From: Carcharhinus amblyrhynchos
Lineage: Eukaryota
NCBI GenBank assembly: GCA_965287045.1
Contig: OZ336873.1
Coordinates: forward strand, 80,600,001 to 80,664,000
Direction: 5' to 3'
DNA length: 64,000 nt
Under the pieces are notes generated by a model. The model worked only from the letters and a program-made list of their open reading frames with translations, was not told where the DNA came from and did not search any database. This document shows, in pieces, positions 11,986-36,092 of the stretch. Numbering within the stretch: position 1 is the stretch's first letter; each line of letters starts with the position of its first letter. Both the position numbers and the translations under genes were made by a program.

Positions 11986-12330
11986 TTTTTTCTTTTATTC
12001 TTTTGTGGGATGGGGGCATCACTAGCAAGGGTAGCATTTGTTGTTCATTCCGAACCATCCTTTGGAAGGTGGTGGTGACTTGTCATCTTTAACCATTGCA
12101 GCCCATGTGGTATAGGTACAACATGATGTGGATGTGCCGGCGTTGGACTGGCGTAAACACAGTAAAAAGTCTGACAACACCAGGTTTTAGTCCAACCTAT
12201 TTATTAATAAATAGGTTGGACTAAAACCTGGTGTTGTCAGACTTTTTACTGTATAGGTACAACCACAGTACTATTTGGAAGAGAGTTCCAGGATTTTAAT
12301 TCTGAGTGAAGGACTGGTGATATAATTTCA
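11986..12330 (-). mobile_element. Zenon-like LINE 3' fragment, host of Penelope hairpin 1
   Basis: Matches the reverse complement of 8110-8290; continuous across the duplication at 12110-12122/12251-12263. Confidence 0.65.
12123..12252 (-). mobile_element. Penelope-like family A fold-back insertion, copy 1 (perfect 94-bp palindrome)
   Basis: Arms 12159-12205 and 12206-12252, no spacer; unpaired tail 12123-12158; flanking duplication GTATAGGTACAAC. Confidence 0.85.
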
Positions 12331-12499
12331 CGCAATGAATGCTTAGGATTTTGAATTCACTGTCTGTTGAGTGATGGAAACAGTTTATAGGAAGTCTATT
12401 CTTGAGGATTCAGGACATCAGGAGGGCAAAAACAGAGTGACAGAGCACTTTGTGGTGAAAAACGTTACTCTCTGACTTTACGAACATTCTCCATATTGC

Positions 12500-12970
12500 T
12501 GAAAAGAGAAACATATCACCAAAGTTTTTTATCTTGCACTCATCAGGACAAAGGAAAGAATGCCAAATAATAAAAGATCCCACCAATATATACTATGGAG
12601 AAAAGGGGTGCTGATTCGTTGGCAAGTCAATTCTGATTGACTAAGGTATTGCCATGGAGAAAACAACAGGGATCTATGGACTCGCTAATGCTTCTGAGTA
12701 ATTCTATAAAGATGCCAGGCTTGAACATGTTACTTTTGTTTGCAGTGAACAGGTCCCTGCGTATAAACATTTGTTGCTTCCATGGATGAACTACATTAGC
12801 TGCCCAATCGGGAATCACATCTAACAGTGGACATTTTGTTTTGAGTTTTGTAAGCGCGGGCTGGTTCAGTGTGGTCTGTACTCTGCCTAAAATGGACAGC
12901 CAGATGAACATGTTTTTAACAATCAATCATTCATTGGGATTTATGGATTATGTGCCTGGCATCACACCAG
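12500..12970 (-). mobile_element. Penelope-like family C remnant (GIY-YIG endonuclease C-terminus and decayed pLTR)
   Basis: Minus strand reads DARHIIHKSQ*...KHVHLAV...TEPARAYKTQNKMSTVRCDS and MEATNVYTQGPVHCKQK*HVQAWHL; CCTGATGAGTGCAAGA hammerhead-like remnant at ~12530-12548. Confidence 0.65.
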
Positions 12971-13055
12971 CAATGCAGCATCTTCCAAGAAGTTGGTTAT
13001 GATCTGTCAAACAGAGTTCCCACTGAGTAAAGAAATGCTTTCAGCACCAACCTTT

Positions 13056-13250
13056 CATAGGACATAGAACGTGCAGTACAGGCCCTTCAGCCTTCGATGG
13101 TTTTCACAGATCGGCGAAACAATCTAAAGCCCATCTAACCTACACTATTCCAATATCGTCCATATGTTTATCCAATGACTATTTAAATGCCCTTAATGTT
13201 GGCGAGTCCACTACTGTTGCAGGCAGGGCATTCCAAGCCCTTACTACTCA
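13056..13250 (-). mobile_element. CR1 LINE 3' end
   Basis: CATAGAAC...CAGGCCCTTCAGCC tail and WNALP-like codons on the minus strand. Confidence 0.7.
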
Positions 13251-15137
13251 CCTGGTCGTGGCTGGAGCACTTTACTGAATTGGTCAAAGTCTTTCTAGCT
13301 TGTCAGTTTCACTAAAGTAACATTCCCACTTGTCTCGGATGACCCTAGTGAGTTGCTAACATGTCAGGAAATTGATGTCCTGATTGTTAGTTCCAGAATT
13401 GAAGGTATTACAGCACTTGTCTGCTTGACGAGAGGTTTTCCTGCTCTCCTTAGAACCTGGTCAGATGAAATCCCAGAGAGGTCATAATGAAGTGACGATC
13501 CCAACCTGGCATCAATGTTTTGGAGCTTTAACTCCCGGCATGCAATCAAACCCGCTTCCCCTTGCCTAGGCAAATTCCACCCCTTGGCAGAATTTTCCTG
13601 TCCCACCTGCCACGGGAATCATAGCAGGAGGAACATGAACCATGCAAAGGTCCGTTGACCTCAGGTGGCATTTTTCTGGTCTTGGGGGGAGCGCAACTGG
13701 AAAATCCTGCTCCTCCTCTTTGTAAGGAGAGGATGACCAGTATATTCATTCACTTGTTTATTTGCTGATGAGAATTGGAGGCTTGCGTCTTCAGTGGGAT
13801 GGAATGGCAAAGGAACTGAGGGATTGGAAAGTAATAGAATGTTGAATTCAATTCCAGCTGTATTATTAATTTTATAATAACATTGCTGTGTGCAAGCAAC
13901 AATTATCATTAATTTATTGTTGCTGGAGTGTACTTTTGGCTGCCTGCACTCTGTTTTATAATCATCACATATTTATACTAATAAGGTTATGATACAGTCA
14001 TACTTACATTTATTATTGCCGGGAACAGAGAACTGCCTGTGTTGTTATAGCATGGATTATTGTTACTGTTGGTACATCTGTATATGTCCTGGGGATCAGA
14101 AAATGGGAGAGGGAGATTAATAAGGAATGTCAAGAGATTGTACATGTTATTATTGTCTTTCACAGAACTACTAACTTTAAAAAAAAGCCTTGATAATTGT
14201 GCAGCATAGTAAAAAATGCATTTCATTCATTGCAATCCAGATTTCTTTTTAAAAATTACCTTTATAATTACTGACTAGAATGTTCCAGCAACTACCAAAT
14301 TGAGTCACGTATTAGTAGGAAGTTGTCAGTCAATTTCATTTCCACAGCATTATGTCACAACATTACTTACTTACTTCAGAAAAGTTGAGCTGTGTCGACT
14401 CCTGACTTGATGTAGCTGTCACAGTACATAGTGCCGGTTTACCTGTCAGAAAACCAACTGCCTTCCTCATTGACATAAACTGAAGATACAATCCGCTCTC
14501 CAGTGGGGGTGGGGCAGAGGTAGAGCTTGCTCTCCAGGGAATTCCCTACCCCCATCCCCATCCACAAGGATTTATAACATAAAATAGTGATTACAATGTC
14601 GAGAGAGACTCTGAACAAGCACAAGTCGAAAGATGCTCACATTTCAGGGTTGTAGGGAAGGTCAATTTTTGTCAGTAATTCGTTCGGGCTGAAGGGTAAA
14701 ATGAACAGCCATAACAGATAAAGCAGACTTGGGCATAAAGTAACAATGAATGTAACTTACTTACGCCCAAATGTCTGTGACCTGTTAAGCATCTAATTGG
14801 TTTGTCATCTAAATGCTGCATGTTGCTGGGCTTGAATCCAGTGGGAAGTCGAGGCTTTGCTCTTCATTACATGCTTCTGTTTGACCAGTATGACCAGCAA
14901 GAACTTTTGGTCAGTGGTGTGTAGCACAAATCTGAAATAAAGCTCTGCTACAAAAGCATTGCGTTTGACATTACAAACTGGGTGTTCCGCCAGACTGGTT
15001 CTCCTCAGCTCCTACTCACCCAATTGAAACGACTGGGAGCGCATTGCATCTCGTCAAATAATCGTCTCTATCAAATCAAATTCTTTTTTAAATAGTTCAG
15101 CGCTTCCTACTCAATTGTGCTTCTTTTCCTTTGTCAG

Positions 15138-15325
15138 GATATTCCATCCTTCAGGTAATCATGGAAGCTGCTGTCCAGAACAACTGGCAAGTTACAGCGA
15201 AATCAGTTGGAAGCATCACCGATGTGATGGAATACAGGAGAATCTTTGAGGAAATGGACAAAAGACAAGAGAGAAGATATTTGATAGACTGTGAACTGAA
15301 CCGACTGAATGCTATTTTGGATCAG
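15138..15325 (+). CDS. gria3: AMPA receptor GluA3, internal coding exon (NTD; equivalent to mammalian exon 4), 188 nt, phase 1 to 0
   Basis: ttgtcAG|GA...CAG|GTaacc; (G)[62 protein letters not shown]; [17 protein letters not shown] is the GluA3-type sequence. Confidence 0.93.
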
Positions 15326-16535
15326 GTAACCTCTATTTGTGTAATATCTCCGTCAACAAAAAAATAAATAAACGATTGCTTTGTATTCACTGTAGTGGCA
15401 CCGTGATCCTGTTAAACCCAGTGTTGGTAATGCAATAGCAGGCCTTTCTGTTCTAATGCAAAGCCACATCCATCCTCGCATCCCCAGCGGACTACCTACT
15501 GATAATGTCCAATTTACTCAGCAAGAATCCTGTAATCCTGCTCTCTTCGAGTTCCTGCTCCATATACACATTATAAGAGGATCACTCTAATAGCATTAGC
15601 GTTGGTGGTGCTGGTTGTGGAAGATTGTGAGCTCAATTGAATAATGTTTTTTTTTGAAGGTCAACTCACAAGGTTTATAGCCCTGGTTATAATGTGTTAC
15701 TTACATCTACTTTCATCCTGCTTTTCACTGCAGCTGTTAAAGTGGAAATAAGCCTCTCTATACACAGGCGAGCGCGAGCCCGCTGCATCACTTGGGTTGA
15801 TTACTTCTATTGCTTAATTGATAAGATCTGATCGGGCGGTTAGCTCTTCAATCAGTAGAAGAACAGCAGAAGTGCTCTGAGGCTTTCCGTAAAAGCAAGC
15901 GAAAAGGCAAGCCTTGTAATTGTGCGGCAAACTCAAAGTGAGGAGGATATCACTCGGAGGCAGTCTGGTTTACGAAACTGCTTGTAGAATTGGAGCAGTG
16001 CCAGTAGCCAGACTTCTGTTGCGGGTGTAATTAAAATTCTTTCACAATGCCAACGCTAATATATAGCATAACAATTGCCTCAAAAAAAAATTTCAGTGCC
16101 ACAACTATCATTAATCTCACCTAAAGCTATGTAACTCTTAATTCCTTCCACTTTCATATATTTGAAAAGATATATGCTGCTTTATGTTGAGCTGCATTCA
16201 AGAGAAATCTCATTCCTTAGAATGTACAAGAATATTTTCAATGTATTGGGAAAAAAATGGCTGAAGCGATGTTACTGATGAAATGTTAAAAATCAATTGA
16301 GCCGAAAACATGATTAATGGATGATCTTTGAATCTGGCAGGAAAGACCATTGATGGTGAATATTTTGGAAAATTTACGTCATTGAAGCATTACAGGAAAG
16401 GAGTTGTTACTGCGGAAAAAGGGTTGATGCTACTAGATCAAGGGATAGGAAAAAAGAACAAGGGAATGGGTGAATGTAGTATTAGAAGCTGATTGAATCT
16501 AATGATTCAAAGCTGAGGACTGTACCAGTTGCCAG

Positions 16536-16854
16536 CATAGAATCATAGAATTCGTACAGTGCGGAAAGAGGCCATTTGACCCAGCAAGCCTGCACTGACA
16601 ATAATCCCACCCGGCCCTATCCCCATAACCCCATGTATTTGCCCTGCTAATCCCAGACACTAAGGAGTAATTTAGCATGGCCAGTCCACCTAGCCCGCAC
16701 ATCTTTGGACTGTGGGAGGAAACCAGAACGCCTGGAGGAAACACATACCGAAGTGGAGAGATTGTGCAAACTCCACACAGACAGTGATGCAAGCTGCGAA
16801 TTGAACCTGGCTCCCTAGCATTGTGAGGCAGCTGTGCTAACCACTGTGCTGCCC
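16536..16854 (-). mobile_element. HE1/V-type SINE, tail A
   Basis: Full-length reverse copy with (CATAGAAT)n tail. Confidence 0.85.
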
Positions 16855-17365
16855 CTAGGTAAAAAAGCCTCAGAGTAAAATGAAGAAAGACATAAGGAGA
16901 TGGTAAAAACAGGGTGATTTTCTACATCTGATTACACAGCCGGAGACAGGCTTTAAGACACTGTTCCCATTGAAAACATCGAAAATGCACACTGATTCTT
17001 CTAGATGTTGGGGATTTCTTTCCAGCTAAGCCACATTTCCATAATTCAAATTCTCCCTGTCCAATCCTACTTTCCAATCAAGGGATTTTATTTTGAAGTA
17101 TGCAAACCAACCTGAATTGCCACAGGGCAGGGCACCATCAAAGTGGGAAATAAAAGACAGGAGTTAAGGTGACTTCAGAATTAATCCAGTCCCTTTTTTG
17201 AGGGGGCCCCTAGCATTGTGGAGCACCTGTAACTGGTGTCGACAGAGATTGCTGGAGTGCAACCAATACAGTTTCACACAAGCGATTATTAGCAAAAATG
17301 AAGTGCACAGAATTGGAAATATCCTTGTGCAATGGGTTCCTAATTGGTTGGGAGGAAAGAGACAG

Positions 17366-17682
17366 TTTAAGTTTTAAAGTTTATTTATTAGTGTCACAAG
17401 TCAGCTTACATTAACACTGCAATGAAGTTAACTGTGAAAATCCCCTAGTTACCATATTCCAGCACCTGTTCAGGTACACTGAGGGAGAATTTCGCATGCC
17501 GATGTACCTATGCAGCACATCTTTCAAACCATGGTGGGGAAGCCCGATCACCTGAAGGAAACCTCCAAAGACATGGGGAGAATGTGCAGACTCCACTTAG
17601 ACAGTGACCCAAGCCAGGAATTGAACCTGGGTCCTTGACACTGTGAAGCAGCAATGCTAACCACTGTAACACCATGCCGCCC
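17366..17682 (-). mobile_element. HE1/V-type SINE, tail B
   Basis: AAAGTTTATTTATTAGTGTCACAAG...ACCATGCCGCCC. Confidence 0.85.
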
Positions 17683-18204
17683 CAAAAGCTTGGGATAAAT
17701 GACACACTGGTGAAAGGTGGCAAGTAGTGTTTTCCAGGGGTCTGTACAAAATCTTCAGCTTTTCGCTACGTAAAATTAATGACATTGATCAAGGGATATG
17801 GGGATGGAATGTAGTCTGTGCAAGCCTGAACCAGGAGACCTGATGCCAGCTTTGAATTTTAAGCCTATTGTGCGTTTATAGGCAAATCATGCATTTGCAT
17901 TGAATGTGCTGAATATTGGACTACTTGTCTTACCAACTGCTACCCAGTAGTTCCTGAGAGGAGGTTGGAATGGAAAACAAGATGGTGGGACAACTATGAT
18001 GACTGGTGCACTCCTGCTCCTCCCAGCTTCACAGAAAATATTTTTAAAGACATTTTAACAAATGAATCGTTAATTGGCTGTCGTATGGGTAACTAAATTC
18101 TGAACAGAACAGTCCAGGTACCTGCTCCATTTAACATACACTATGGAAGAGTTCTTCATGGTAGGAATGGTGTCGACTCAGCCAACATCATAGTGAAGCT
18201 TTTT

Positions 18205-18370
18205 GGGAACAGTGTCCTCTCAGTTAGCTTTGATGGGAAGCAATCTTGGAAAAGTTACCTCACAGACAGTACTGCAGTGAAGAGGATCTGGGAATGGTGT
18301 CCTCTCAGTCGGCATAGCAGTGAAGCAGTCGGGAAGTGTCCCCTTAGTCAGCATTACAGTGAAGCAGTCA
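18205..18370. repeat. Degenerate ~40-bp minisatellite, about 4 units
   Basis: Unit approximately GGGAA..GTGTCCTCTCAGTCAGCATTGCAGTGAAGCAGTC. Confidence 0.7.
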
Positions 18371-18524
18371 TGATTTTAAAGTGTTATTTTTGTGGAAGAA
18401 GAGAAACTGAGAGACCACACAAATAAATGAAAGTCAGGGTCATTTCAATAAATTAATGTAAGTAACGTAGGGTAAGGGAAGTAAAGTTGGCAGAAGAGAG
18501 GTAATTAGTATTCTAATTACTTTG

Positions 18525-18840
18525 CCCCTTGATGGAGGGATAAATGACTAGGAAGCATTAATTTAAGGTAAGGGGCAGGAAGTTTAGAGGAGATATGAGG
18601 AAAATGCTTTCTCCCAAAAGGTGGTGGGACTCTGGAACTTACTGTCGGAAAGAGTGATGGAGGCAGAAACCCTCATAACATTTAAGAAGTATTTATACGT
18701 GCACTTGTGATGCCAAAGTATACATGTTGATTGGTTAAGTGCTGGAAATTGGGATTAGAATAGTGAGGTGGTTTGTCTTTGACCAGTGCAGACTAGATGG
18801 ACCCAAAGGCCTTTATCTGTGCTGTAGACCTCTATGACTT
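18525..18840 (+). mobile_element. CR1 LINE 3' fragment
   Basis: TTTAAGGTAAGGGGCAGGAAGTTTAGAGGAGATATGAGG... and CR1 3' UTR. Confidence 0.75.
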
Positions 18841-19540
18841 TATAACATAGATTCGGCGATCATTAACATGTATAAGGGGTCTTACACCTGTTGACTTTGC
18901 CTGCCTGGGGTACCCAAAAAATGGATCTAATGAATTTAGCTGTGGGTTAAATGCCTGGGTGGATTGGGTGCAGGCCAAATATATATGCATTGTGCCCTTT
19001 TTACCCCCAAAATCACATATTCAAATTTGTAGATAGCCCTAATGTAGGAAACAATATGTTGTGGTGATGGAAGCAGGAAATTACAAAGGGGTATAGTGAG
19101 TGAACAAAACTATGACAGTTGAAACATGATATTCATTGTGTAGTATCATATACTTTGAATCAAAAGAGCTTCTTAATAGTGCAAGGTAAGGAACTGAGGA
19201 GCAAAAGGATGCAAGTGCAAATGTATAAAAAGCTCTAAAAATACTGCATTGAGTCAAAAAATGATGTAAAATTCAAATGGATTCTTGACCTTTCTTTGAA
19301 GGTGGATTTAACACTAGTATGGAAGTTGTGAATCATTTGTGGAATCTTGGTCTGATCTCATCTGATGTACTGTATTAAATTGAGGAGTAAGAAATATTGG
19401 CCTAGGAAGACCTTGTACAGCTCTGATTCACCAGTATAATAGCCCTGTCTCATTGTGTTGGCTAAAGAATTTATAGTGTGACCACACTTGCACATTTGTT
19501 CAAACGTTTTCACAGGTAATTCTTTTCTTTTCTGACACAG

Positions 19541-19594
19541 GCAGTAAATGTTGGCAAAAATATCCGAGGTTACCACTACATGTTGGCTACTCTG
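19541..19594 (+). CDS. gria3: GluA3 coding exon (equivalent to exon 5), 54 nt, phase 0-0
   Basis: tcttttcttttctgacacAG|GCA...CTG|GTaagt; AVNVGKNIRGYHYMLATL, with the GluA3-type GYHYML motif. Confidence 0.93.
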
Positions 19595-19982
19595 GTAAGT
19601 GTTTTCTTTGTGATTGAATGAATGATAGATGTATGGCAAGACAGCCATGGGATAGCTAATTGGCACATGAGTTAGAAATTGATCTTTTACCTCAGAGTTC
19701 ACCTCTAACTCAGACTAATGGACAGTTGACTGGGAGGATCCATGTAAGGTTAATTTGGGAACGCTGAATTCAATGTCAAGCAATTATTGTCCCCCAGAAC
19801 CTAACTGACTATTGGCTAAGGTGTGTAAGATATGGAAAATGTTGCACTCATGTTGTGGAAGGTCTGCTCCTAAAATTAGCCAGTGGGTGCATTGTCAGAG
19901 TCAAAGCAGAGGGAACTTTACCCTGCACCAAACCATGTTGTACCTTACAAAACAACATACTGTTGATGCTGGAATTTCTTTT

Positions 19983-20292
19983 CCTCTATTTCTTCATGGG
20001 ATGGGAGCATCACAGGCAAAGTCTGTGTTTGTTGTCCATCCCTAATTGCCCTTGAAGGATTTGCTAAGCCATTTCAGAGGGCAGTTCAGATCAAACCACA
20101 TTGCTGTGGTTTGGAGTCACATGTAGGCCAAGCCAAGTAAGGGTGGCAGATTTTCTTCCCTGAAGGTCATTAGTGAACCAGATGGATTTTTACAACAATT
20201 GATTATAGTTTCATGGTCACCCTTACACAGATTAGCTTTCAATTACCAATTTTTTAATTAAACTCACTTTTAGATTGAAATTCATCTGCCAC
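19983..20292 (-). mobile_element. tRNA SINE type C (Zenon-like tail), partial
   Basis: Same sequence family as 9503-9846. Confidence 0.7.
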
Positions 20293-20517
20293 AGTTTTGC
20301 CCATTCACCTAGTCTATCAATAAGCCTATCATGGTTCGGGGAGGGAGGGAAAGAATGAGAGAGTAGAAGCCCAGCAAATTATGCTCTAGTTCCATATGAG
20401 AAAGCCCTGAAAATGTCCACACATGTGCAAAGCTCAAGCCCAGCCAATAATTTATGGGCCTCAAGATTAAAGGTTGATCAGGACCCTCAAACATTTAAAC
20501 AATTAAGAAATAAGTTT

Positions 20518-21022
20518 TATAGAGTCACAGAGGTTTACAGCATGGAAACAGGCCCTTCGGCCCAACTTGATCACGCTGCCCTTTTTTTAAACCTCTAAGC
20601 TAGTCCCGATTGCTCACATTTGGCCCATATCCCTCTATACCCATCTTGCCCATGTAACTGTCTAAATGCTTTTTAAAAGACAAAATTGTACCCACCTCTA
20701 CTACTATCTCTGGCAGCTTGTTCCAGACACAATGAAAAAAATTGCCCTCTAGTTTTAGACTCCCCTCTCTTTGGGAAAAAATATGGACTATCTAGCTGAT
20801 CTATGTCCCTCATTATTTGATAGACCTCTATAAGATTGCCCCTCAGCCTCCTACGCTCCAGAGAAAAAAGCCCCAGTCTATCCAGCCTCTCCTTATAACT
20901 AAAACCATCGAGTCCTGGTAACACCCTAATAAATCTTTTCTGCACGCTTTCTAGTTTAATGATATCCTTTCTATAATAGGGTGACCAGAACTGTACACAG
21001 TATTTCAAGTGTGGCATTACCA
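20518..21022 (-). mobile_element. CR1 LINE 3' fragment
   Basis: PHLKYCVQFWSPYYRKDIIKLESVQKRF...LERRRLRGNLIEVY. Confidence 0.9.
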
Positions 21023-21086
21023 GTTAAAAAAACACCTAAGCACTTTATAATTCTTATAAAGACCCTCCCTTAGCTGCAGTTATGTA

Positions 21087-21370
21087 AAGTTAAAGTTTAT
21101 TTATTAGTCACAAGTAGGCTTATATTAACACTGCAATGAAAATCCCCTAGTTGCCACACTCGATGTCTGTTTGGGTACACTGAGAAGAATTTAGCATGGT
21201 CAATGCACCTAACCAGTGTGTCTTTTGGACTGTGGGAGGAAGCTGGAGCACCTGGAGGAAACCCACGGAGACACTGGGAGAACATGCAGACACCACACAG
21301 GCAATGACCAAAGCCGGGAATCAAACCCAGATCCTAGCATTATGAGGTAGCAGTGCCAACCACTGTGCAC
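21087..21370 (-). mobile_element. HE1/V-type SINE, tail B
   Basis: Reverse copy with GTAAGCCTACTTGTGAC-type tail. Confidence 0.85.
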
Positions 21371-24165: not shown

Positions 24166-24171
24166 ATAAAT

Positions 24172-24512: not shown

Positions 24513-24559
24513 TGAGAGATATTGGGCACAATTTTATCAGATCGCTCTGCCCATCAATG

Positions 24560-25085: not shown

Positions 25086-25565
25086 TTCCACAATGTCCAC
25101 AGTCATGCACAATCCAGAAAGTCCCTGGGTAGCATGTTGAGACAGAGGCCAGAATTTTACCGTCCCACCCGCCACGGGAATTGGAGCAGACAGTGGGTGG
25201 ACCATGGAGGGTCCACTGACCTCGGGCAGGATTTTGTGGTTTCGGGATGAGAAAGGCTGTAAAACCCCACCTTGAAATTCAGACTGATTTTGTTCTCCTT
25301 CCTCAGTCTGGCTAAAGTCTCCTATCCTAGCAGAAATCCAGCCAACTCTGCAGCAACTAGGGATCAAAGTAGGGATTTTTCTGATCTGTGAAAGTTCGCT
25401 GCATGGTAACCTTTACCAAGAAGAGCCATCAGGAAAGCCCAGATAAGGCAGTTTTTTAAATAAATGAACAAGGTATTATAGGGGAAAATAATCCACAAAG
25501 ATTGTGGGACTCAATATTTTGTTTTGTGGTCGAATTAAGCCAGCCTTTATTTTTGTTCATTGCAG

Positions 25566-25727
25566 GGCTTCTCTGATCTCGTACTTGATAAATTCATTGA
25601 GACAGGAGTCAATGTCACTGGCTTCCAGCTTGTGAATTATGAGGATCCAATGGTGCAAAAATTCATGCAGAGGTGGACAAAGCTGGATCAGAGAGAGTAC
25701 CCTGGAACTGCTGCCAGCACATTAAAG
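25566..25727 (+). CDS. gria3: GluA3 coding exon (equivalent to exon 6), 162 nt, phase 0-0
   Basis: ttttgttcattgcAG|GGC...AAG|GTatgg; GFSDLVLDKFIETGVNVTGFQLVNYEDPMVQKFMQRWTKLDQREYPGTAASTLK; N-glycan sequon NVT; in frame with the previous exon. Confidence 0.92.
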
Positions 25728-26696
25728 GTATGGCCTTGACCCCGAAAAGTATTCAACCTTATCTAGCATTCGGCTGTGTTACAAATTCAATCGAGAGTAG
25801 GTCAGACTCCAAAATTAGAACACCTCGGGTATTTCAGGCTGTCTTATTAATGCTTAGAAGATCCACCCTATAAAGTAATTTGGACAGTTTTCTAAATCAG
25901 TACCAGAAATAAAACCTGTTCAAATGAATTACGACAACAGCTGCAACACGAATTTATACTGTGTACCTAATGTAACTTTAGTTAAACTATTACAAATAAT
26001 ATGGCATATATTCATTAGACAATGATCTCTATTTGGTGGTTCAATTCACAATAATTTGTGAATTATTAGGAGGGTTAATACTCTAGATCATTCTAGGGAT
26101 CATACTTGTTGGTGTGTTTCTCCTGTCCTTTAAACACTGGCTGACATCAGGCTCCCAGTCTCCTGGATCTTCTCCAGACTCTCACTCCACTCTCAGTCTC
26201 CATTAATATTTTTAAGGTTCCAGTCATCTCCAGCTTTTTGGTTTTCTATTTCCTTTCTTTGTGGCTTTGGCCTCTATTCCTTAGGCAGAATCCTGTTGAG
26301 GTGCCAAGGGGTCAGGGGTCCTGCCTGCTGACAGGAAAGTTAGCAAGAGGCCCACACTGCCACTCTTTGGGAAGGCCCACTGAACCACATGCCAATCAGG
26401 TTTTGACGAGACCAGCAGCATGCCTTCCCCTGCAATCAAGGTGCAGGAGGGCAGTAGCTTCACCTATTGGCAGCTGCCAACCAGTCAGAGGCTGGAAGCT
26501 CTTATGCTCAGCAGAATTGCTGGAAAGTTGCAGTTGGAAGCAATGCTACGATTGCTGGGTCATCCAGGCCACAGGTAAGGAATGTAGAGGGAGGTTCACC
26601 AAGGTGGTGAGTGGCATGTATGAGGGTCTGCAACAAGCGCAGAGGCTGGTATCTATCAGCAGCACCCCCCAGCCCTCCCAAAGTCCAGTCTCTTGA

Positions 26697-27010
26697 TCAT
26701 AGTCTCCCTACATTGCAGAAGGAGAACATTCGGTCCATCAAACCTGCACCAACAACAGTCCCACCCAGGCCCTCACTCTCTATAAATCCACATACTTACC
26801 CCATAGTCCCCTGACACTAAGGAGCAATTTAGCATGGCCAATAAAGCTAACCCACACATCTTTGGACTGTGGGAGGAAATGGGAGCACCTGGAGGAAACC
26901 ACACAGACATGGGGAGAACCTGCAAACTCTACACAGATAGTGATCCATGCTGGAAACTGAGCCTGGGTCTCTGGTGCTGTGAGGCAGCAGTGCTAACCAG
27001 TATACCACCC
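26697..27010 (-). mobile_element. HE1/V-type SINE, tail A
   Basis: Reverse copy with head, V-domain and tail. Confidence 0.85.
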
Positions 27011-27664
27011 CAGAGGTAGTATGTGCCTCTGATCTAGGGATCCCTACCCACCCCTCAAATGGCAGAGGTGACAAGCTGGTTGCACATTTGAACATGCTGT
27101 GCATGCCACATTGTGACAGAGCTGCCTGAAGGAAAGTTAATAACCAGTAGTGGCAGGATGAGGCCCTTAAGTGATCATTAATTGACCACCTAAAGGCTCC
27201 ATTTGGTGGCGGGTTGGGAAGGTTGACCTTGGAGGGGCCTTCCTGCCCAGAACGCAATTCTTCTAGTATGCCACTGTCTCTTCCCACAGGTTCCAATCTC
27301 ATCACCAAGAAAAGGACAGCTTCCAGCCAAGACTGTATGAAGTGATGGCAACTCATCAAACAGTTAACACATATCAAATTTCCATTTTTTTCTGGGGGCT
27401 ACAAGACAGGGCTCATTGTTTCTCCTCCTTGCATTGCATTCTGTAACCTCATTATGCTGTTCTACAAAGTACCATTAGATGATGTACCCTGCTATGTGAG
27501 AGAATGTTCCACAAATGAGGTTACTGTTACACTCTACTTACTTTGTTACAATGGACCCTGAACTCAGCCTCACCAGTCTGTCTCATTGATTCCAAAGTGC
27601 AGCAGCATTGTCCCAGCAGCTAACTTTGAGGTCAGAAGACAACATTAAGAGCAGAGCAAATTAA

Positions 27665-27800
27665 TACAAAGCGAAAACGGGTGCTGGAAATACTCAGCAG
27701 GTCAGGCAGCATCTGTGGAGGAAGAAACAGATCAATGCTTCAGAACTGTGACCTTTTGCCAGAACAGTTCTGATGAAAGATCAGTGACCTGAAATGTTGG
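27665..27800 (-). mobile_element. Penelope-like family B pLTR with decayed fold-back
   Basis: GCTGGAAATACTCAGCAGGTCAGGCAGCATCTGTGG...TGACCTTT..CAGAAC, then inverted GTTCTGATGAAAGATCAGTGACCTGAAATGTT (hammerhead core on +). Confidence 0.6.
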
Positions 27801-28084
27801 GCCCAATCTTACTGCCTTTGAAGAGTTTCTGAGCTTGTGTCAAAATCAGGTCCCAACATAACTTGTCAAGCCTATCCACCTGCTTGCGCAATATTAATTA
27901 ATTGGCAACCAAGTAAGAGGCCACCTCTGGAATCAGCATCCAATAAAGGACAGTTGGTGGTCAGACCTGCCCACTGGTAGGGCCCACAGCAATGTTCTAC
28001 TGGCAACAGGGGAAGATAATAGTGAAGAGCCAATATTATTGGAGTAGCATCATCCACAGGTCATCCAGGCCACAGGTAAAGAAT

Positions 28085-28452
28085 GCTCTGGGGAGATGGG
28101 TTCAAATCTCACTTTGATACTGGTTGAATTTAGATTCTATTGGGAGAATTTTACCATCTCGCCCGCCACAGGAATCAGAACAGTCGATGGGCAGACCATG
28201 GAAAAATCAGTTGACCTCAGGTGGGATTTTCTGGTTTCAGGGTGAGCGTGGCCAGAAAATCCCACCCAATTGAGCAGGTCTGCAAGTGAAAGCTAATCTC
28301 AGTAATGATGATGATGAAGCTGCCATTGATTGTTGTAAAAACCCAATTGTTCACTAATGCCCCTTTAGGGAAAGTAACATGCCATCCTTACCTGGTCTAG
28401 CCTACATGTGACTCCAGACCCACAGCAATGTGATTGACTGTTAACTGCCCTC
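28085..28452 (+). mobile_element. tRNA SINE type C interrupted by a MITE (28142-28268)
   Basis: GGGTTCAAATC B-box and ...CCTACATGTGACTCCAGACCCACAGCAATG... Confidence 0.65.
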
Positions 28453-29711
28453 TCCGCATTCCCCCTCTCCCTGCACATGATGACTAGCAAAGTGGCTCCT
28501 TGAGTAGGAAAAATACAGGAGTACTTGGAAGTGCATGATAAAATAGGACTGAGTCAGCACGGCTTCATCAAGGGGAGGTCATGTCTGACAAATCTGTTAG
28601 GATTCTTTGAGGAGGTAACAAGGAAGGATGTGATTTATTTAGATTTCTAGAAGGCCTTTGACAAGGTGCTGCATTGGAGACTGTTAAATAAGAGTCCCTG
28701 CTGTTACAGGTCAGATCCCAGCATGGATAGAGGATTGGCTGACAGGCAGAAAAGGAGATAGAGGGCTCTTTTATCAGTGTAGCAGCTGGTGACTCGCGGT
28801 GCGCCTCAGGGGTTGATACTGGGACCACATCATTTCACAATATACATTAAGGACTTGGAAGGAGGAACTAAATTTGTTACTAAATTTGCAGATGATACAA
28901 AGATATGTAGAGAGACGGTTGTATTAAGGAAGCAGGGGAGGGCTGCAGACAGGTTAGGAGAGTGGTCAAAAAAGTGGCAGAAGGAATTCAATGTGGAAAA
29001 GTGTGAGTTATGCACTTTGGAAGGAGGAATGGAGGCATAGACTATTTTCTAAATGGGAAAATGCTTAGGAAATCAGAAGCACAAAGGGACTTGGGAGTCC
29101 TTGTTTAAGATTCTGTTCAGGTTAATGTGCAGGTTCAGTTGGCAGTTAGGAAGGTAAATGCAATATTAGCATTCATGTCGAGAGGGCTACAATACAAGAG
29201 CAGGGATGTACTTCTGAGGCTGTATAAAGCTCTGGTCAGACCCCATTTGAAGGATTGTGAGCAGTTTTGGGCCTAAGAAAGGATGTGCTCATCTTGGAAA
29301 GTGTCCAGAGGAGGGTCACAAGAATGATCCCTGGAATGATGAGCTTGTCACATGATTAATAATTGAGGACTCTGGATCTGTACTCGTTGGAGTTAAGAAG
29401 GGTGAGGGGGGATCTTATTGAAACTTGTAGGATACTGCGAGACCTGAGTAGAGTGGACTTGCAGAGGATGTTTCCACCAGTAGGAAAAACTAGAACCAGA
29501 GGGCACAATCTCAGGCTAAAGGGACGGTCCTTTAAAACTGTAACTCCAGAAGCGAAAGTCCCGTCACCAAGTTACTCTACTTACACCACACATTTGTACT
29601 TGGCCAGCTAACCAGTTGCTCCCTGCTGAATGCAGGTTGGGAGTCTGACACACAAATAGGGAGTATAAGTCTCCCTGATTTTAACCATCAAAAGAGATAC
29701 TTCATCAGGTA

Positions 29712-30290
29712 TCTCTTTTGAATACCAAGCAAATAAACTAACTCAAACTAACTGAAAGACAAATTAAAAGGGGCAACTCCCCAAAAGAAGGGGGAACAGC
29801 CCAAACAAAAAACAAAGTTGAAAGGAAACTTAAAACATCAAATCAAAAGGTGATTTCAGGATCGATAATACACCCCAGCCCCTGTGGTGCCCAACGGGCA
29901 TGGAAGGCATCAACTGTGCCTGTGGACACCGCATGCTCCCTCTCCAGGGACACCTGGCCGCGAATGTAGCCACAGTAGAGGGGCAGACAGTCAGAATGGA
30001 CGACCCTGTCGATTGCCCGCCGCCTGGACCTGTTGATGACACAACTCACCAGGCTCAGGAGCAAGTTCGTGAGGAGGTCGTCCTCCCTACCCACCCCTGC
30101 TCTGCATCAGGCACCTGTAGATCAGGAGTGTGGGGCTGAAGTGCAAACAAAACATCAGTAAAAGTTTTTCAGGAAACTGAAAAGGGTGTGCAACCTCAGA
30201 CGTAAAACATAGACATGGTCCACGGATTCCACAAGACCACAAAAATGCAAGCTTGTGAGTCCGTGAACCGAAGGAACTTATGGTTGTACG
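29712..30290 (-). mobile_element. Tx1-clade (L1 group) LINE 3' fragment
   Basis: CIF/CGLVESVDHVY zinc-knuckle remnant and GREDDLLTNLLL...DCLPLYCGYIRGQVSLEREHAVSTGTVDAFHARWAPQGL; T-rich 3' UTR ending ...TTCAAAAGAGA. Confidence 0.75.
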
Positions 30291-30308
30291 GGAAAGACTC
30301 ATCAGGTA

Positions 30309-30351
30309 TCTTTTTTCATACCAACCAAATAAACAAACTCAAATTAACTTA
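30309..30351 (-). mobile_element. Second Tx1 3'-terminal stub (~43 nt)
   Basis: TCTTTTTTCATACCAACCAAATAAACAAACTCAAATTAAC aligns with 29712-29752; bracketed by ACTCATCAGGTA. Confidence 0.65.
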
Positions 30352-30994
30352 GGGAAAAGGACTCATCAGGTACTTTATAATCTTGCAAGCCAACCTCATT
30401 AACCTGGCTGAAGCCATAACAAAAACAGAGATAAGGAGGAATTTTTTTCAGCCAGAGTGGTGAATCTGTGGAACTCTTTACTGCAGAAGGCTGTGGAGGC
30501 CAGGTCATTGAGTGTCTTTAAGACAGAGATAGACAGGTTCTTGATTGATAAGGAGATCAGGGGTTATGGGGAAGAGGCAGGAAAATGGGGAGAAGAAAAG
30601 TATCAGCCATGATTGAATGGCAGGGCAGACTTGATGGGCCAAGTGGCCTAATTCTGCTCCTATGTCTTATGGTCTTAAGGTCTCATGGACTCACTGTCCA
30701 AGAAAGTACCCCCCTGTCTCCCTGCCCCCCACCTCTCGTCACCCACCATCATCTGCTGCAGGGAAGTCATCTCCAGAGACCTCTTGAATTTTGTCCAAAT
30801 CATGGGGCCTGTCCACAGTAACAGTAAGACCCAGGTGTTGTCCCCAGGTGGCCAGTTAATGGCCACCAATAGGCTACCACCCACTGCCGGGTAGGTAGCC
30901 ACTTCCATTGCTCATCCTCATCTGGCAAGGATGCTCAGATACAGAAACCCATCACTGATACCACCCTTTTGTATTTCCTGCCAGTCACACTTAA

Positions 30995-31064
30995 AGCTGT
31001 CTCTTTCTCTCTCCAAAGATACTGCCGGACCTGCTGAGTATTTCCAGAATTCTCCTGTTTTTTT
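30995..31064 (+). mobile_element. Penelope-like family B pLTR stub
   Basis: TCTCTCTCCAAAGATACTGCCGGACCTGCTGAGTATTTCCAG. Confidence 0.55.
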
Positions 31065-31730
31065 ACAGTCGTAAGAACATCCATTTTGCTCTGATGTTAA
31101 GATTCCATAATTCACTTTGAAAGTTTCCAGGAGTTTTGAAGAAGTAGAACGATCGGAATTACAGTAGAAAAGTAAGACGTGCAGCCCACATCATCCATGC
31201 TATTGCTGCCAAGCATTTGTGAAATGTATTTCTTGTCAGACTGGAGGTAAACAGTGGCTGGCAGATAATGAAAGCAGCATGACATGACCCCAAGGTAGAT
31301 GCTAACACCACTTGTACTCTCATGGATTTATGTCTGCATATCAAGAAGAGACACAACAGTACAGCTATCTTTCACACCAATGCACCCAATGTGAAGTGCT
31401 GTAAAACTGCAGTTTGGGGTAAATGTTTCTTCTTGACAATACTTCTGCCTATCAGTGTGGGAGTGGATTGAGGAAATGGCATTCTGACTGTATATTGGCT
31501 AGAAAGTCCTCTGATTCAAACCATTGATTTCCCGCTGATCAAAGATTGCTTAATAGAAAACAGGAAAAGTTAAACATAGAAAATTGTGCCTAAAATGTAA
31601 AGTCTAAAATGTGAGTGATCTGCTATCATCGACCTATTATGGTCTGACCCAGCTGCCTGGAATAAACTCTTGCCCACAGGAGGGCTTGCAACGTGGGCTA
31701 ATGTTGGGTGGATGCCAGTCTCTCTCATCC

Positions 31731-32172
31731 ATGTGGGTATGCCGGCGTTGGACTGGCGTAAACACAGTAAAAAGTCTGACAACACCAGGTTTTAGTCCAA
31801 CCTATTTATTTGATAATATACTCACAAGCTTTTGAGGGGACTGCCTCTTCGTCAGGTGAATGGAGAGTTCTGGCCTCAGACAGAGCATATAAAGCACAGA
31901 CAGTTTAGAGATTGCTGATTAAAATGCGAATCCTTACACCTAACCTGCTGTTCCACTCACATTATCAGCCACTTCAGGTCTTGAACAGCAGGTTAGGTGT
32001 AAGGATTCGCATTTTAATCAGCAATCTCTAAACTGTCTGTGCTTTATATGCTCTGTCTGAGGCCAGAACTCTCCATTCACCTGACGAAGAGGCAGTCCCC
32101 TCGAAAGCTTGTGAGTATATTATCAAATAAATAGGTTGGACTAAAACCTGGTGTTGTCAGACTTTTTACTGT
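31731..32172 (-). mobile_element. Penelope-like family A fold-back insertion, copy 2 (190-bp inverted pLTR arms)
   Basis: Arms 31764-31953 and 31983-32172 match at 189/190; 29-nt spacer; tail 31731-31763; duplication TCTCTCATCCATG at 31721-31733 and 32172-32184. Confidence 0.9.
32075..32116 (+). ncRNA. Minimal type I hammerhead ribozyme motif of Penelope type
   Basis: Stem I ATTCAC/GTGAGT; CTGACGA 32081-32087; stem II GAGG/CCTC; GAAA 32103-32106; palindromic AGCT helix III; predicted cut after 32110. Activity not shown. Confidence 0.75.
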
Positions 32173-32189
32173 CTCTCATCCATGCAGAG

Positions 32190-32712
32190 ATATACACGTA
32201 CACCCACACAAACCCACCCCATACACACTACCCTGCAGATACACCACACACCCCCCCCCCCGCCCCACACACGCAAGCACACAACCCCTCCCACACACTG
32301 CACCCACATTACCACCCCCACACACACCACAACCCCACTCATACCAGATTCCCCACATACACCGCACTCTCCACACACCTGACCCCCCCCCCCCCCCCCC
32401 CACAACCTCATAACCCCAACTCCTGCACACAGCACATCTCAGACACACACACACCCTCCCTCCACACTACCCTCCATACGGACCACACCCATACACACCC
32501 CCCCCAACCCCATACACACACAGTACTGGCCCCATTAACAATCACACACACACTCCCTCCCACACAAGCACCTCACACACACACACACACTGTCCCCCAC
32601 ACAGACCACATCTCCGTATATGCCAGACTCCCCACAAATACTGAATCCTCCCACACAACCCCATCCCCTGCACCCACCACATCCCACACACACATCCCCC
32701 ATCACACCCACA
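32190..32712. repeat. CA/C-rich low-complexity tract
   Basis: Degenerate (CA)n with poly-C runs. Confidence 0.9.
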
Positions 32713-32715
32713 TCA

Positions 32716-33066
32716 GGGAGGCGATAGCCTAGTGGTATTATCACTAGACTATTAATCCTGAAACTCCACCAATGTTCTGGGGACCTGGGTTCAAATCCCA
32801 CTACAGCAGTTGGTGGAATTTGAATTCATCAAAAAATATCTGGAATTAAGAATCTACTGTTGACCATTTATGATTGTTGGAGAAACCCATCAGTTTCATT
32901 AATGCCCTTTAGAGCAGGAAATCAGCCATTTTTGTCTGGTCAGCCCTACATGTGATTCCAGTGCCACAGCATTGTAGTTGAAGCTCAACTGCCCTTGGGA
33001 AACTGGGAATGGGCAATAAACATTGGCCAGCCAGCGATGCCCATGTCCCTCAAACAAATAAAAAAA
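32716..33066 (+). mobile_element. tRNA SINE type C (full length, Zenon-like LINE tail)
   Basis: A-box TAGCCTAGTGG, B-box GGTTCAAATCC, tail GGGCAATAAACATTGGCCAGCCAGCGATGCCCATGTCCC. Confidence 0.85.
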
Positions 33067-33202
33067 CACACACGCAAAATTATTATCTCTTCCATTATTA
33101 TTGTTTATTTGTGATTGACTGTTTTATCTATTGCTCAAAATCAATAAGGTTCTTGCAATTTTGAGGCCAAGCTTTCACAATTTTATTAAGTATGAAATAT
33201 TG

Positions 33203-33645
33203 AAGGTGGCGCAGTGGTTAGCACTGCTGCTTCACAGTGTCAGGGACCTGGGTTCAATTCCAGCCTCGGGTCCCTGTCTGTGTGGAGTTCTCCCTGTATC
33301 TGCGTGGGTTGCCTCTGGGTGCTCCAGTTTCCTCTTACAGTGCAAAGGTGTGAAGGTTAGGTTGATTGGCCATGCTAGGTTGCACCTTAGTGTACATTAG
33401 ATGGATTATTATTATTATTTATTTATTCATCACAAGTGGGCTTACATTAACAATGCAATGAAGTTACTGTGGAAATCCCCTAGTCACCGCATTCCGGCAC
33501 CTATTTGGGTACACTGAGGGAGAATGGGAAATGTGTCGTTATGGGGATAGGTTAGGAGGAAGGGCCTGTGTAAGTTACTCTGTCAGAGAATTGGTGCAGA
33601 CTCAAAGGCCCAAATAGCCTCCTTCTACATTGTAGTGGTTCTGTG
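33203..33645 (+). mobile_element. HE1/V-type SINE (tail A) containing an inverted tail-B fragment (33405-33525)
   Basis: Head and V-domain, then (TAT)n-TCACAAGTGGGCTTACATTAAC...GAGGGAGAAT, then tail A resumes. Confidence 0.75.
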
Positions 33646-34493
33646 ACATGCAGTAGTGTTCAGCATACACTTAGAATATTACAATGCCTGGCTGCTGGGT
33701 ACTTTAAACACTTCATAATTTTAAGCTCAGGATTTAAATTGGTCGATTTATTTTGACTCAAAATCCTCATTATAAGTTGCATTTTTTTTATTCTTTTACC
33801 ACTCCCAGACAATGTGCACATATCTATCTTGCATAATTACATAAAACAGCAAAAACAACTCCATTCAAAGACAAATTAGTTGAATCTGTACCTGTCCATG
33901 AATTCAGTGCATACCAACTAGATCTTCTTTCACTGGACTACTGAGACCTTTCTTTGTTACTTTAACATGAATCTCTCTCATGTTACATATAATTATTATT
34001 CTACCAAGTGAAACTTTTAATTAATGCTGCCTGCTTTTGATTTTGTGAACGGTTCAGCTCTTTAATATAGAATCATCTGGTGGTGATGACAAAACTCCTC
34101 CAAAGTTTCATATTGACGAACATTATTATAGAAAGTGTCTTCACAATCGGTGCTATCCCATTAAAGTTTGCTTTGCAGCACAGAACACAAGCCAGACAGC
34201 TCCGTGGTTGTTTTAAGGTTCATTAGCAGTGGGACTGAGGCAAATCACCAGGATTTGTCCTGAGGGTCATCCATTTCCTTTTTGCTTTAAAATGTCCAAC
34301 GTTGACTGAACTGAAGTAGTCTAACATTTCCATGTCCCACTACCTCATGGTTTTCTGGTATCTCACCCAATGTGTTACCCACTGATTTATTTTTGAAAGA
34401 CCTTTTGCCCACTGCCAGGATCATGTGAGCATATGCAAAAACTCATTCATGTTGCAGTAATGTCCTGAGAAACAGACTCTGAATAAAACTGTT

Positions 34494-34625
34494 AAACAGA
34501 ATACTGCCTATGCTGGAAATCTGAAATAAAAATCAGAAAATGCTGGAAATACTCAGCTGGTCAGACAGCATCTCTGGAGAGAGAAACAGAGTTACCTTTT
34601 CAGGTTGCTGACCTTACATCAGTTT
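34494..34625 (-). mobile_element. Penelope-like family B pLTR remnant
   Basis: Tail and decayed hammerhead (minus: CTGATGTAAGGTCAGCAACCTGAAA). Confidence 0.6.
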
Positions 34626-35253
34626 GAGGTTCCAAGGGGATAGGGGTTGATCAGGCACCTTATGGAGGGGTGGGCAGTGAGTTGTAAGAGACTGGTTGGT
34701 GGTGGACAGACAAAGTGGTGTCTCATCTTGTGAAGGCTGCCCACACAGGAGGTGCTCTCTCCCTCCCCTTCACCCCATCTGTGCTGGAAGAGCTGTTGAG
34801 CAATGTTTGTTTGCTTCTGCCCTCTTCCTCAGACCAAAGAATAGTGACAGAGATCAAATAAGACTCTTAAGTGCCAGTGATTTGTCCACTTCCGGGTCTT
34901 AATAGGCGTAATGGGGCATGTGGGTTGTCTAATGCCGATCCACCCTCCCATAACATAGGAGACAGGTCAGGAGTGAGCAGAAAGACAGGTTCATTTCTCC
35001 CCATTGTTTTGAGTCATAATGTCCTATGTCCCTCAGTCTTCCGAGAATTCCCAAACCCGACTTTCGGCAGCAAGATCACTGATTTCTTCTCCTAGTCTGG
35101 CCAGGAAAAATTGACCTTAAATCTAAGCAGCTTTAGCCTCTTCCTCCCGAGGACGTGCTCCCACCAGCATTCTGCCTGGTATGCAACAGAGCACAGCCTT
35201 TTCTTCTGAAATCTACAACTACATCTCTTTCCATCTATGGCCAGGGTTTCTGA

Positions 35254-35355
35254 TGTGGGTATGCCGGCGTTGGACTGGCGTAAACACAGTAAAAAGTCTG
35301 ACAACACCAGGTTTTAGTCCAACCTATCTAAAACCTGGTGTTGTCAGACTTTTTA
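35254..35355 (-). mobile_element. Penelope-like family A fold-back insertion, copy 3 (29-bp arms)
   Basis: Arms 35289-35317 and 35328-35356, 10-nt loop; duplication CAGGGTTTCTGA at 35242-35253 and 35356-35367. Confidence 0.85.
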
Positions 35356-36092
35356 CAGGGTTTCTGAATCAGACTATCTGAGAACCTGTGGGCGGAATTT
35401 TACCGGTACGTCCACCTGTATGAGTTTTGTACAATCCCGCCCAAGGCAAATGCCGTTCTCCAAGTCTCGTCCGTGCGTCCGTGGAATCGAAACCTGATTT
35501 TCCGTGAGATTTGATATTGGCCCCCTGTTCTCAAAGTAACCAGGCTACACAGTCTTACCATTGGACAGAACTAGCAGCAGGTCACATGATCCTTTTCCTT
35601 ACTCCCATTTTACCTTGAGTTAAAGAGGCAATTTAAAATATAATGATCTTGTAACACCCAGCTGTCTACCAGTTATTAAAAAAAAGTCCGTTGATATAGA
35701 TCTTCAAAATTTCAATTTATTCAGAATTCATAGTATTTTTGGAGAACAGTTTTCACTGTATGCGATCCCAGTTAGACATTTTTACCATTAAATCAGTTTC
35801 CTTAACCAATTAAATTGCATTGAACTTCATAAATAAATTATGCAATATCTCCAGCTCGATATTATTTTACAGGTAGTGGTTTGAAGCTTGCTTCAAGTAA
35901 TACATGGCCAACAGATCTGAACTACAGCATCAGTTCAGTATTACACTCCTTCCACTTATACATATCTTGCCATCGTTTACAGGGAAGTTAGCTTTGTGCC
36001 GATATTAATAGGAGTTTTGAAAGATTCCATATAGTCCAAATTTTTTATCTTTATTTCATGCCAGCTACAGTTGTATCACAGTAAGATAAGAA

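Follow-up and report, generated by a model that had tools for sequence, protein, structure and literature searches.

Features of the locus

The window, the whole 64,000-nt stretch of Carcharhinus amblyrhynchos DNA that was analysed, contains three hairpin insertions and two open frames with matches to a host gene (Table 1). The insertions are likely to be intronic in a GRIA3-like gene, and no exons flanking the copies were found among the 295 open frames scanned. The three hairpins are real and share one layout, with the arms and loops (47/0, 190/29 and 29/10 nt) and duplications (13, 13 and 12 bp) given in a preliminary description of this DNA. The tail motif has three matches in the window against zero expected from shuffling. 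The paired arms of copy 2 (31764-31953 and 31983-32172; 190 nt, 99%) enclose the 29-nt loop described earlier, which belongs to the tailless arm and not to the tailed arm; those of copy 3 are at 35289-35317 and 35328-35356. All three window copies are ordinary dead stubs.

For copy 1 the two outer junctions, and for copy 2 the left one, were present in contigs from two samples of a single study (one sample may be that used for the assembly), and no contig of these two samples spanned a whole hairpin. The empty alleles that the preliminary description had proposed to genotype were not seen in the four sequencing runs examined. A contig of another organism ceases to resemble the window 12 nt short of copy 2, which may be a weak hint of an empty allele. 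A known RNA family (miRNA precursor) was rejected for copy 2, which gave only generic hairpin matches below the Rfam gathering score. A MITE or inverted-repeat transposon, a constant unit with symmetric termini, was likewise rejected, as the ends are asymmetric and the turn-around varies by copy.

Table 1. Coordinates of features in the window
Feature	Position	Strand	Remarks
Copy 1 left target-site duplication, 13 bp	12110..12122	+	TG 2 bases outside, 12106-12107
Copy 1 tail	12123..12158	-	Element RNA is read on the minus strand; tail end at the ORF start codon
Copy 1 palindrome, perfect, 47+47 nt (94 nt)	12159..12252	.	No loop; tailed and tailless arms head-to-head
Copy 1 right duplication	12251..12263	+	2-nt overlap with arm end; CAG at 12266-12268
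Host exon matching glutamate receptor 3 (GluA3)	15134..15331	+	3o21_A residues 141-206, E 3e-28; context
Open frame with likely later exon of same gene	25539..25736	+	Weak ANF_receptor match; context
Copy 2 left duplication, 13 bp maximal match	31721..31733	+	Without TG half-site, among few exceptions
Copy 2 tail	31734..31763	-	
Copy 2 tailed arm, 190 nt	31764..31953	-	Hammerhead copy with GAAA changed to AAAA
Copy 2 tailless arm	31954..32172	+	Takes in the 29-nt loop, the extra length of the tailless arm
Minimal hammerhead-ribozyme motif (candidate)	32076..32115	+	CTGACGA, stem II, GAAA, palindromic AAGCTT; read by eye
Copy 2 right duplication	32172..32184	+	Followed by CAG
Copy 3 left duplication, 12 bp	35242..35253	+	TG at 35238-35239
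Copy 3 tail	35254..35288	-	Duplication overlapped by first 3 element bases
Copy 3 arms	35289..35356	.	Two 29-nt arms, the second tailless; the 10-nt loop is extra length of the tailed arm
Copy 3 right duplication	35356..35367	+	CAG at 35370-35372; full TG-N16-CA site

The source element

The hairpins are 5'-truncated insertions from a Penelope-like element (PLE) that is young and of Neptune type. A single 893-aa ORF with reverse transcriptase (RT) and GIY-YIG domains, the domains expected of the autonomous master in the preliminary description, stood in 16 of 16 fetched loci. The element protein has an RVT_1 match (E 1e-8), and GIY-YIG matched the C-terminal piece (E 1e-4) but was without a score on the whole protein. 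Its homologues are unnamed RT proteins from sharks, turtles, amphibians and invertebrates. The family numbers thousands of copies, with intact ORFs in 31 of 150 scored rows; tandem organisation forming pLTRs occurs in L034, L031, L260 and L261, and both a 30-40-nt tail and an inverted 5'-truncated copy are present. On this anatomy (an ORF with RT and C-terminal GIY-YIG, pLTR tandems, tail, inverted truncated copy) the family is classed as a PLE, and the PLE origin and tail proposed earlier are borne out. CHSNLCKTC, found in 16 of 17 intact ORFs, fits a CX2-5CxxC linker between RT and endonuclease, which in the available text of PMC8557442 marks the Neptune and Nematis clades; the linker is common to both, and the family is probably of the former type.

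End classes and pairing in sister copies

Most of the sister copies sampled come from the initial 31 Mb of a single contig, and an exact seed match was required. Their unique ends were bimodal (n=292), with 152 at the tail end, 131 lying 29-40 nt in and 3 between, the remaining 6 being internal tandem junctions. When pairs bounded by a duplication were considered, 105 of 106 were tailed/tailless and none was tailless/tailless; the sole tailed/tailed call proved to be two normal insertions side by side at one site. Second arms started 24-43 nt from the tail end in 112 of 124 insertions and at 50-98 nt in the other 12, so that the fixed end point of the preliminary description gives way to a window, and its statement that the inverted arm always stops at CTTTTTAC(TGT) holds for the three window copies only. 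That the inverted product is the main outcome was upheld by an unbiased tally of 65 events, in which 44 were two-ended, 10 single-armed and 11 unresolved.

Tail-only arms of 29-32 nt were found opposite long tailless arms (L073, L084, L126), and a tailless arm could occur alone with its own duplication (L053, L079, L081). The full-length arm may be either the tailed or the tailless one, and full-length copies obey the same rule as hairpins. RNA hairpins are predicted around both start sites (94% of cells paired, 16 copies, two subfamilies), and the predicted fold contains the GTTGGACT/AGTCCAAC helix suggested earlier. Covariation in these 16 copies of two subfamilies was equal to that in shuffles and the fold z was -0.39, and the hairpins are offered as a lead only.

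Target site and duplication

The maximal duplication (n=122) was 12 bp in 51 insertions, 13 bp in 36 and 14 bp in 14. At 51 unambiguous sites TG stood at -4/-3 in all 51, against a TG background of 8%, and CA at +14/+15 in 46, placing the duplication inside a symmetric TG-N16-CA site. Both half-sites were present in one 12-bp register at 82 of the 116 sites with a duplication of at least 12 bp, and neither at 3. The motif was also seen at 9 of 17 sites of an older subfamily and at 4 of 5 full-length copies with a duplication of exactly 12 bp. In window copy 1 the position of the CAG makes the site TG-N17-CA. No report of a TG-N16-CA target motif was found in the literature searched.

Arms, joints and template

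Arm lengths were counted in 114 two-armed insertions, 10 of the 124 having been left out beforehand (8 with more than 100 nt between arms, 2 from an older subfamily). The tailless arm was the longer in 59 and the tailed arm in 29 (P 0.002). The two lengths were coupled, differing by at most 3 nt in 26 of 114 insertions against 3.7 by permutation. Primer-template microhomology averaged 1.22 nt at each end, compared with 0.47 and 0.44 when shuffled, and 0 of 5,000 shuffles reached it. Arms of one insertion were within one non-CpG change of each other in 44 of 54 cases, against 5.5% between insertions, and came from different variants in 2 of 54 (L052, L139). The tandem L034 carries the 3' pLTR variant at both outer ends and the upstream pLTR variant at neither.

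A hammerhead-like motif in the pLTR, a minimal motif read by eye, has a variable stem II and is a candidate ribozyme; Rfam gave no hammerhead match, with nothing reaching the gathering score. Ribozyme cleavage was rejected as the source of the turn-around. The predicted cut is at about 97 nt, yet hand sums place no more than 11 of 228 inner arm ends at 96-100 nt and 80 within the ribozyme body (110-147 nt); with this cluster in the body and few ends at the cut, stalling fits better than cleavage.

Origin of the hairpins

From features read directly in the finished insertions (end classes, pairing, duplication length, symmetric site, microhomology, arm coupling and shared variants) we infer, with a probability of about 0.65, that the hairpins arose by twin priming, with both ends of a single staggered cut serving as primers. 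This reading is favoured over fold-back because the ends are one of each, the site is symmetric, either arm may be longer and single-class arms exist. Both outer ends are element 3' ends with microhomology above shuffles. The non-overlapping inverted segments from one RNA of the L1 type are not the pattern here; arms overlapped in all but 3 of 114 insertions (L073, L084, L126).

Each of two GIY-YIG domains would recognise a (C)TG/CA(G) half-site that lies outside the cut by two bases, and both strands would be nicked 12 (sometimes 13) nt apart to give 3' overhangs. One 3'-OH would prime reverse transcription at the tail end, beside the start codon; the second would prime at CTTTTTAC, some 37 nt in the 5' direction, and 1-3 nt of pairing would aid both primings. 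As a rule the two cDNAs would be copied from a single pLTR of a single RNA, the tailed cDNA trailing and displacing the tailless one ahead of it, and their synthesis would tend to stall jointly, frequently within the hammerhead-like motif. Their 3' ends would then be joined head-to-head via microhomology or templated filler and host repair would fill in, the hairpins being dead by-products. The odds are about even that a site-selective double-strand break (TG-N16-CA, 12-nt 3' overhangs) is the work of a symmetric pair of endonucleases, and that one RNA is then copied in tandem by two reverse transcriptases from two start sites, one for each broken end. Several observations stand against twin priming: the 12 of 124 second arms at 50-98 nt, window copy 2, which has no TG, and L266, which has two tailed ends and no duplication. 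The single-armed events, the sites whose half-sites do not fit one 12-bp register and the covariation no higher than in shuffles also count against it, as do the ATT preference and the start sites shared by both strands in the assay of a lizard PLE.

Twin priming might instead use two separate RNAs, one per protein copy and usually from the same source locus, which we consider unlikely; one RNA copied twice looks identical to two RNAs of one source. The arms of different variants would be accounted for, and both arms span the same RNA interval, for which a single RNA would need displacement. However, two free RNAs should give tailed/tailed and tailless/tailless pairs, seen in 0 of 105 resolved pairs, and neither the coupling of arm lengths nor the ending of tail-only arms where the second primer starts is expected. 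A single priming at the tail end, with the cDNA folding back to copy itself and the tailless end being a cut or stop joined to the second flank, is quite unlikely, including a hybrid in which the folded-back cDNA then anneals to a short second cDNA. The self-priming with endonuclease resolution set out in the available parts of PMC3846280 and PMC8557442 is close to this route, which in the former is the published reading of junction palindromes. The arms are mostly identical and similar in length. Of 61 microhomology joints, 47 leave a loop of at least 3 nt that a fold-back primer could use, and fit single-cDNA fold-back equally well; in the other 14 the loop is shorter than 3 nt, too tight for such a primer. 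Fold-back also predicts that the tailed arm is always longer, which the 59 of 114 insertions with a longer tailless arm contradict, and it cannot yield tail-only arms, tailless-only insertions or discordant arms. Nor does it suit the tailless ends, which spread over about 15 nt, as widely as the tailed ends, with primer-like microhomology. As a general route fold-back thus appears largely refuted; of the earlier proposal that aborted cDNA is completed by fold-back or a second priming, the second priming at a preferred site stands and routine fold-back does not, given the longer tailless arms and the tailless-only arms.

Long palindromes are unstable, and insertions could have been born longer, the near-symmetric, variable turn-around arising by later deletion of palindrome centres. 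Fillers of at least 5 nt at 20 of 114 joints, several of them copied from nearby sequence, point the same way. This is nonetheless very doubtful. Symmetry falls rather than rises with divergence between the arms (rho +0.29, n=95), near-perfect palindromes as long as 500-650 nt still exist in L039, L040 and L142, and the end classes and target site are left unexplained. It is barely credible that the hairpins are fold-back artefacts of assembly or copies of a small inverted-repeat DNA transposon: the lack of a contig with a whole hairpin would suit an artefact, but each copy has its own duplication, the target motif is common to them and outer junctions occur in independent contigs, while the arms are the 3' end of an RT and GIY-YIG element and the turn-around is unique to each copy.

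Comparison with known systems

In L1 twin priming, said to have been described by Ostertag and Kazazian in 2001, the second target 3' end reportedly primes on the same RNA, giving a head-to-head inversion with microhomology at the joint; it is said to be a minority outcome with a variable second site and cDNAs that barely overlap. In this family, by contrast, most events give the inverted product, the second start falls within a narrow window and the two cDNAs share nearly their whole length. If the proposed mechanism is true, twin priming is the normal route of PLEs rather than an accident, integration is unlike that of any described retrotransposon, and the tail, inverted pLTR and fixed duplication of PLEs are products of one reaction. 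As a by-product, this family has left long hairpins by the thousand in the genome of a vertebrate.

Tail, duplication and inverted truncated copy all belong to the established anatomy of PLEs, for which the hairpin shape has already been described. In the available text of PMC8557442 and PMC3846280, endonuclease-bearing units have a pLTR from a partial tandem, an adjacent inverted 5'-truncated copy, a 30-40-nt tail usually at one end, a duplication (8-10 bp in Adineta) and junction palindromes, all of which have counterparts here. Those parts describe a variable duplication length and an optional tail, from endonuclease resolution, and explain the inversion by self-priming on an antisense template, whereas in this family the duplication is almost constant, 12-13 bp, within TG-N16-CA and the ends are one tailed and one tailless. 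The nearly fixed length contradicts the view that PLE duplication length follows a late second-strand cut. The route to tandem and inverted PLE structures is called undefined in that portion of PMC8557442, and the rules seen here (TG-N16-CA, 12-nt stagger, two starts, one-of-each pairing) give a testable clue to the insertion mechanism. The Neptune linker is also proposed there as a driver of microsatellite targeting; at the sites seen, this family does not target microsatellites and uses TG-N16-CA instead. The portions available of PMC12910113, PMC8969392 and a retrozyme preprint held nothing further on mechanism.

The family suits bench work, having many intact ORFs and a relative with an in vitro assay, the Anolis element Poseidon_Ac (PAc; PMC11167929, available sections). 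In that assay both target strands are cut and extended, which matches the two-ended priming proposed here, and two internal RT start sites bound the tail; PAc further has an AC-rich stem-loop, a pLTR hammerhead and a predicted dimer. Its start sites lie 111-118 nt inside the ORF, the same on both strands, and its cut prefers ATT. The sections of PMC11167929 at hand draw no tie from the start sites to inverted structure or a fixed stagger. PAc belongs to the Poseidon clade, whereas the shark family is probably Neptune-type, with its outer start site at the start codon.

Element family and host gene

In the 2.92-Gb genome, a 34-nt word spanning tail and arm has 8,507 exact matches and a 36-nt arm word has 22,714, while an older tail variant is matched 4,709 times. 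Long copies give a unit of approximately 3,028 nt in partial tandems, of which the window arms are the 3' end, and the tail extends until the following tandem unit's start codon. Among named proteins, the closest come from sharks. Judged by features given in PMC8557442, this Penelope-like element (PLE) family is of the Neptune or Nematis type. A minimal hammerhead motif, identified by eye, lies inside the arm and has a variable stem II, in which (for example at window 32088-32102) pairing is kept despite wide variation among copies. Thirty-nine haplotypes were found in 54 tailed arms.

Two plus-strand frames in the window have matches in the AMPA receptor ligand-binding region, and GluA3 residues 141-206 are the best match of the first; further flanking exons of this GRIA3-like gene were looked for in the window and were not found. 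Since copy 1 lies upstream of the first frame, and copies 2 and 3 lie downstream of the second, the sequence places all three hairpins in what are likely introns of this gene. GRIA3-like AMPA receptor transcripts are of a class known for ADAR editing.

Hairpin insertions and exon matches in the window
Feature	Window positions	Strand	Arm/loop (nt)	Duplication (bp)	Basis
Copy 1	12110-12263		47/0	13	
Copy 2	31721-32184		190/29	13	
Copy 3	35242-35367		29/10	12	
GRIA3-like AMPA receptor gene exons	15092-15364 and 25539-25736	+			AMPA receptor matches

The tail motif was matched three times in the window and not at all in 100 shuffles, and the sizes reported in the preliminary description were reproduced for each hairpin. 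Contigs from two samples of one study, one sample possibly being the assembly's own, contain copy 1's two outer junctions and, for copy 2, the left junction; none of these contigs spans a whole hairpin. One sample's contig has a 21-nt deletion near copy 1, at window 12468-12488. The three hairpins are real, and their shape is already known.

Two classes of end

Each hairpin joins a tailed and a tailless arm head-to-head. Sampling 170 loci and the window gave 292 unique ends, which were placed by their distance from the tail end (d). Ends fell at d -13 to +4 (152/292) or at d 29 to 40 (131/292), with only three between the classes and six at internal tandem junctions. One end of each class was present in 105 of 106 duplication-bounded pairs, the sole exception, L155, being two tailed/tailless insertions at one site. 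At L155:337-1206 these two complete insertions adjoin at one target, and the duplication is present three times. The preliminary description had proposed a fixed end point for the inverted arm; taken from the tailed side, the second arm of 124 two-armed insertions starts at d 24-43 in 112 and at d 50-98 in 12, which upholds a preferred zone and not a single point.

Across the initial 10.3 Mb of contig C1, every arm-word match was also tallied by hand, giving 65 events after removal of duplicated segments: 44 two-ended, 10 single-armed (five tailed, five tailless) and 11 unresolved. Among ten full-length copies with two ends, nine obey the pairing rule, and the full-length arm can be either one; L266 has two tailed ends without a duplication. 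In that full-length copy (L266:1346-5024), the sole unexplained exception, the inverted arm matches the upstream variant of the terminal repeat (pLTR).

Target site

The maximal duplication length (n=122), which in the longer class includes chance matches, was 12 bp in 51, 13 bp in 36 and 14 bp in 14, exceeded 14 bp in 15 and fell below 12 bp in six. The motif played no part in finding duplications. TG occurs at -4/-3 in 51/51 unambiguous sites and CA at +14/+15 in 46/51, against a background of 8%. These half-sites are mostly CTG and CAG, and the duplicated core shows little base preference. Among 116 sites with at least 12 bp, both half-sites were found in one 12-bp register in 82 and in different registers in 20, with the left only in 10, the right only in one and neither in three. 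The pattern recurs in full-length copies and in the older subfamily, where a duplication lies beside the tailless arm in 17 of 27 unique loci, nine being TG-N16-CA. In the window, copy 3 has a full TG-N16-CA target, copy 1 has a 13-bp site and no TG is present at copy 2. The trace that paired endonuclease domains would be expected to leave is a mirror-symmetric site with a fixed stagger.

Independent insertions of different lengths occupy like positions in other repeats, CR1-like and SINE-like (L054, L072-L075, L150; L011, L071; L058, L066, L128; L102, L127, L147, L166), at sites bearing TG-N16-CA, which may be the reason for such repeat hot spots. The site also occurs at the element's own ORF start, directly after the tail (L034:3930-3949). 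Self-insertion at such a site could build tandems, but chance alone predicts about one site in the 200 nt scanned.

Arms, central joint and mechanism

Arm lengths were counted in 114 insertions, after 10 rows had been dropped. The preliminary description had attributed the inverted arm to routine completion of aborted cDNA by fold-back or by a second priming at a fixed site. Fold-back of the tailed cDNA predicts a longer tailed arm; the tailless arm is more than 3 nt longer in 59 and the tailed arm in 29, which speaks against fold-back as the general route. Lengths agree within 3 nt in 26, against 3.7 by permutation. Fold-back is likewise incapable of making tail-only, tailless-only or discordant arms: L073, L084 and L126 have a long tailless arm opposite a tail-only arm of 29-32 nt, lone tailless arms with a duplication exist, and arms are discordant in 2/54 insertions. 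The same variant is in both arms in 44/54, compared to 5.5% between insertions, and both outer ends of L034, a tandem copy, carry the 3' pLTR variant, not the upstream one. Pairing with the template just past the start, at both ends, is 1.22 nt, versus 0.47 and 0.44 expected from shuffles. In L052 and L139 (also L061 and L100) the arms of one insertion differ in ribozyme stem II variant, each variant being found in other copies too.

Deducing all steps from finished insertions, we infer that both ends of one cut prime cDNA, which would explain the tail-only, tailless-only and discordant arms. If one RNA with two start sites were copied, one start per end, then the one-of-each pairing, the lead of the tailless arm and the coupled lengths would follow, and blocking of the trailing enzyme by the leading one would leave tail-only arms. 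The PLE reverse transcriptase is not known to have RNase H, so that the RNA would survive the first pass. Two RNAs of one source may instead have been copied, or fold-back may have come first and its product then annealed with a short second cDNA.

The central joint (n=114) has microhomology of 1-8 nt in 61, none in 13 and filler of at least 5 nt in 20; the loop at microhomology joints is under 3 nt in 14 and larger in 47. Fillers of 17-52 nt in L002, L030, L120 and L157 are short repeats of nearby element sequence, resembling templated insertions of microhomology-mediated end joining. By hand sums, 80/228 inner ends cluster in the ribozyme body (d 110-147), with 11/228, and no cluster, around the predicted cut (d 96-100). 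The two arms of one short hairpin are separated exactly by a 2.8-kb insert (L038:381-3203), which is LINE-like and holds an open frame of 903 aa.

Comparison with known elements

PMC8557442 and PMC3846280 already describe PLEs with a tail, an inverted truncated copy, a duplication and palindromes at the junction, and PMC8557442 terms the duplication length variable. No statement of the pairing rule, fixed stagger or symmetric target was found in the literature searched, the scope of which left outside older subscription papers, Repbase and supplements. The target and pairing rules are sharp and apparently unreported so far, and they make the open question of how PLEs insert testable. For a lizard element in vitro, PMC11167929 describes two start sites that bound the tail, with both strands cut and extended.
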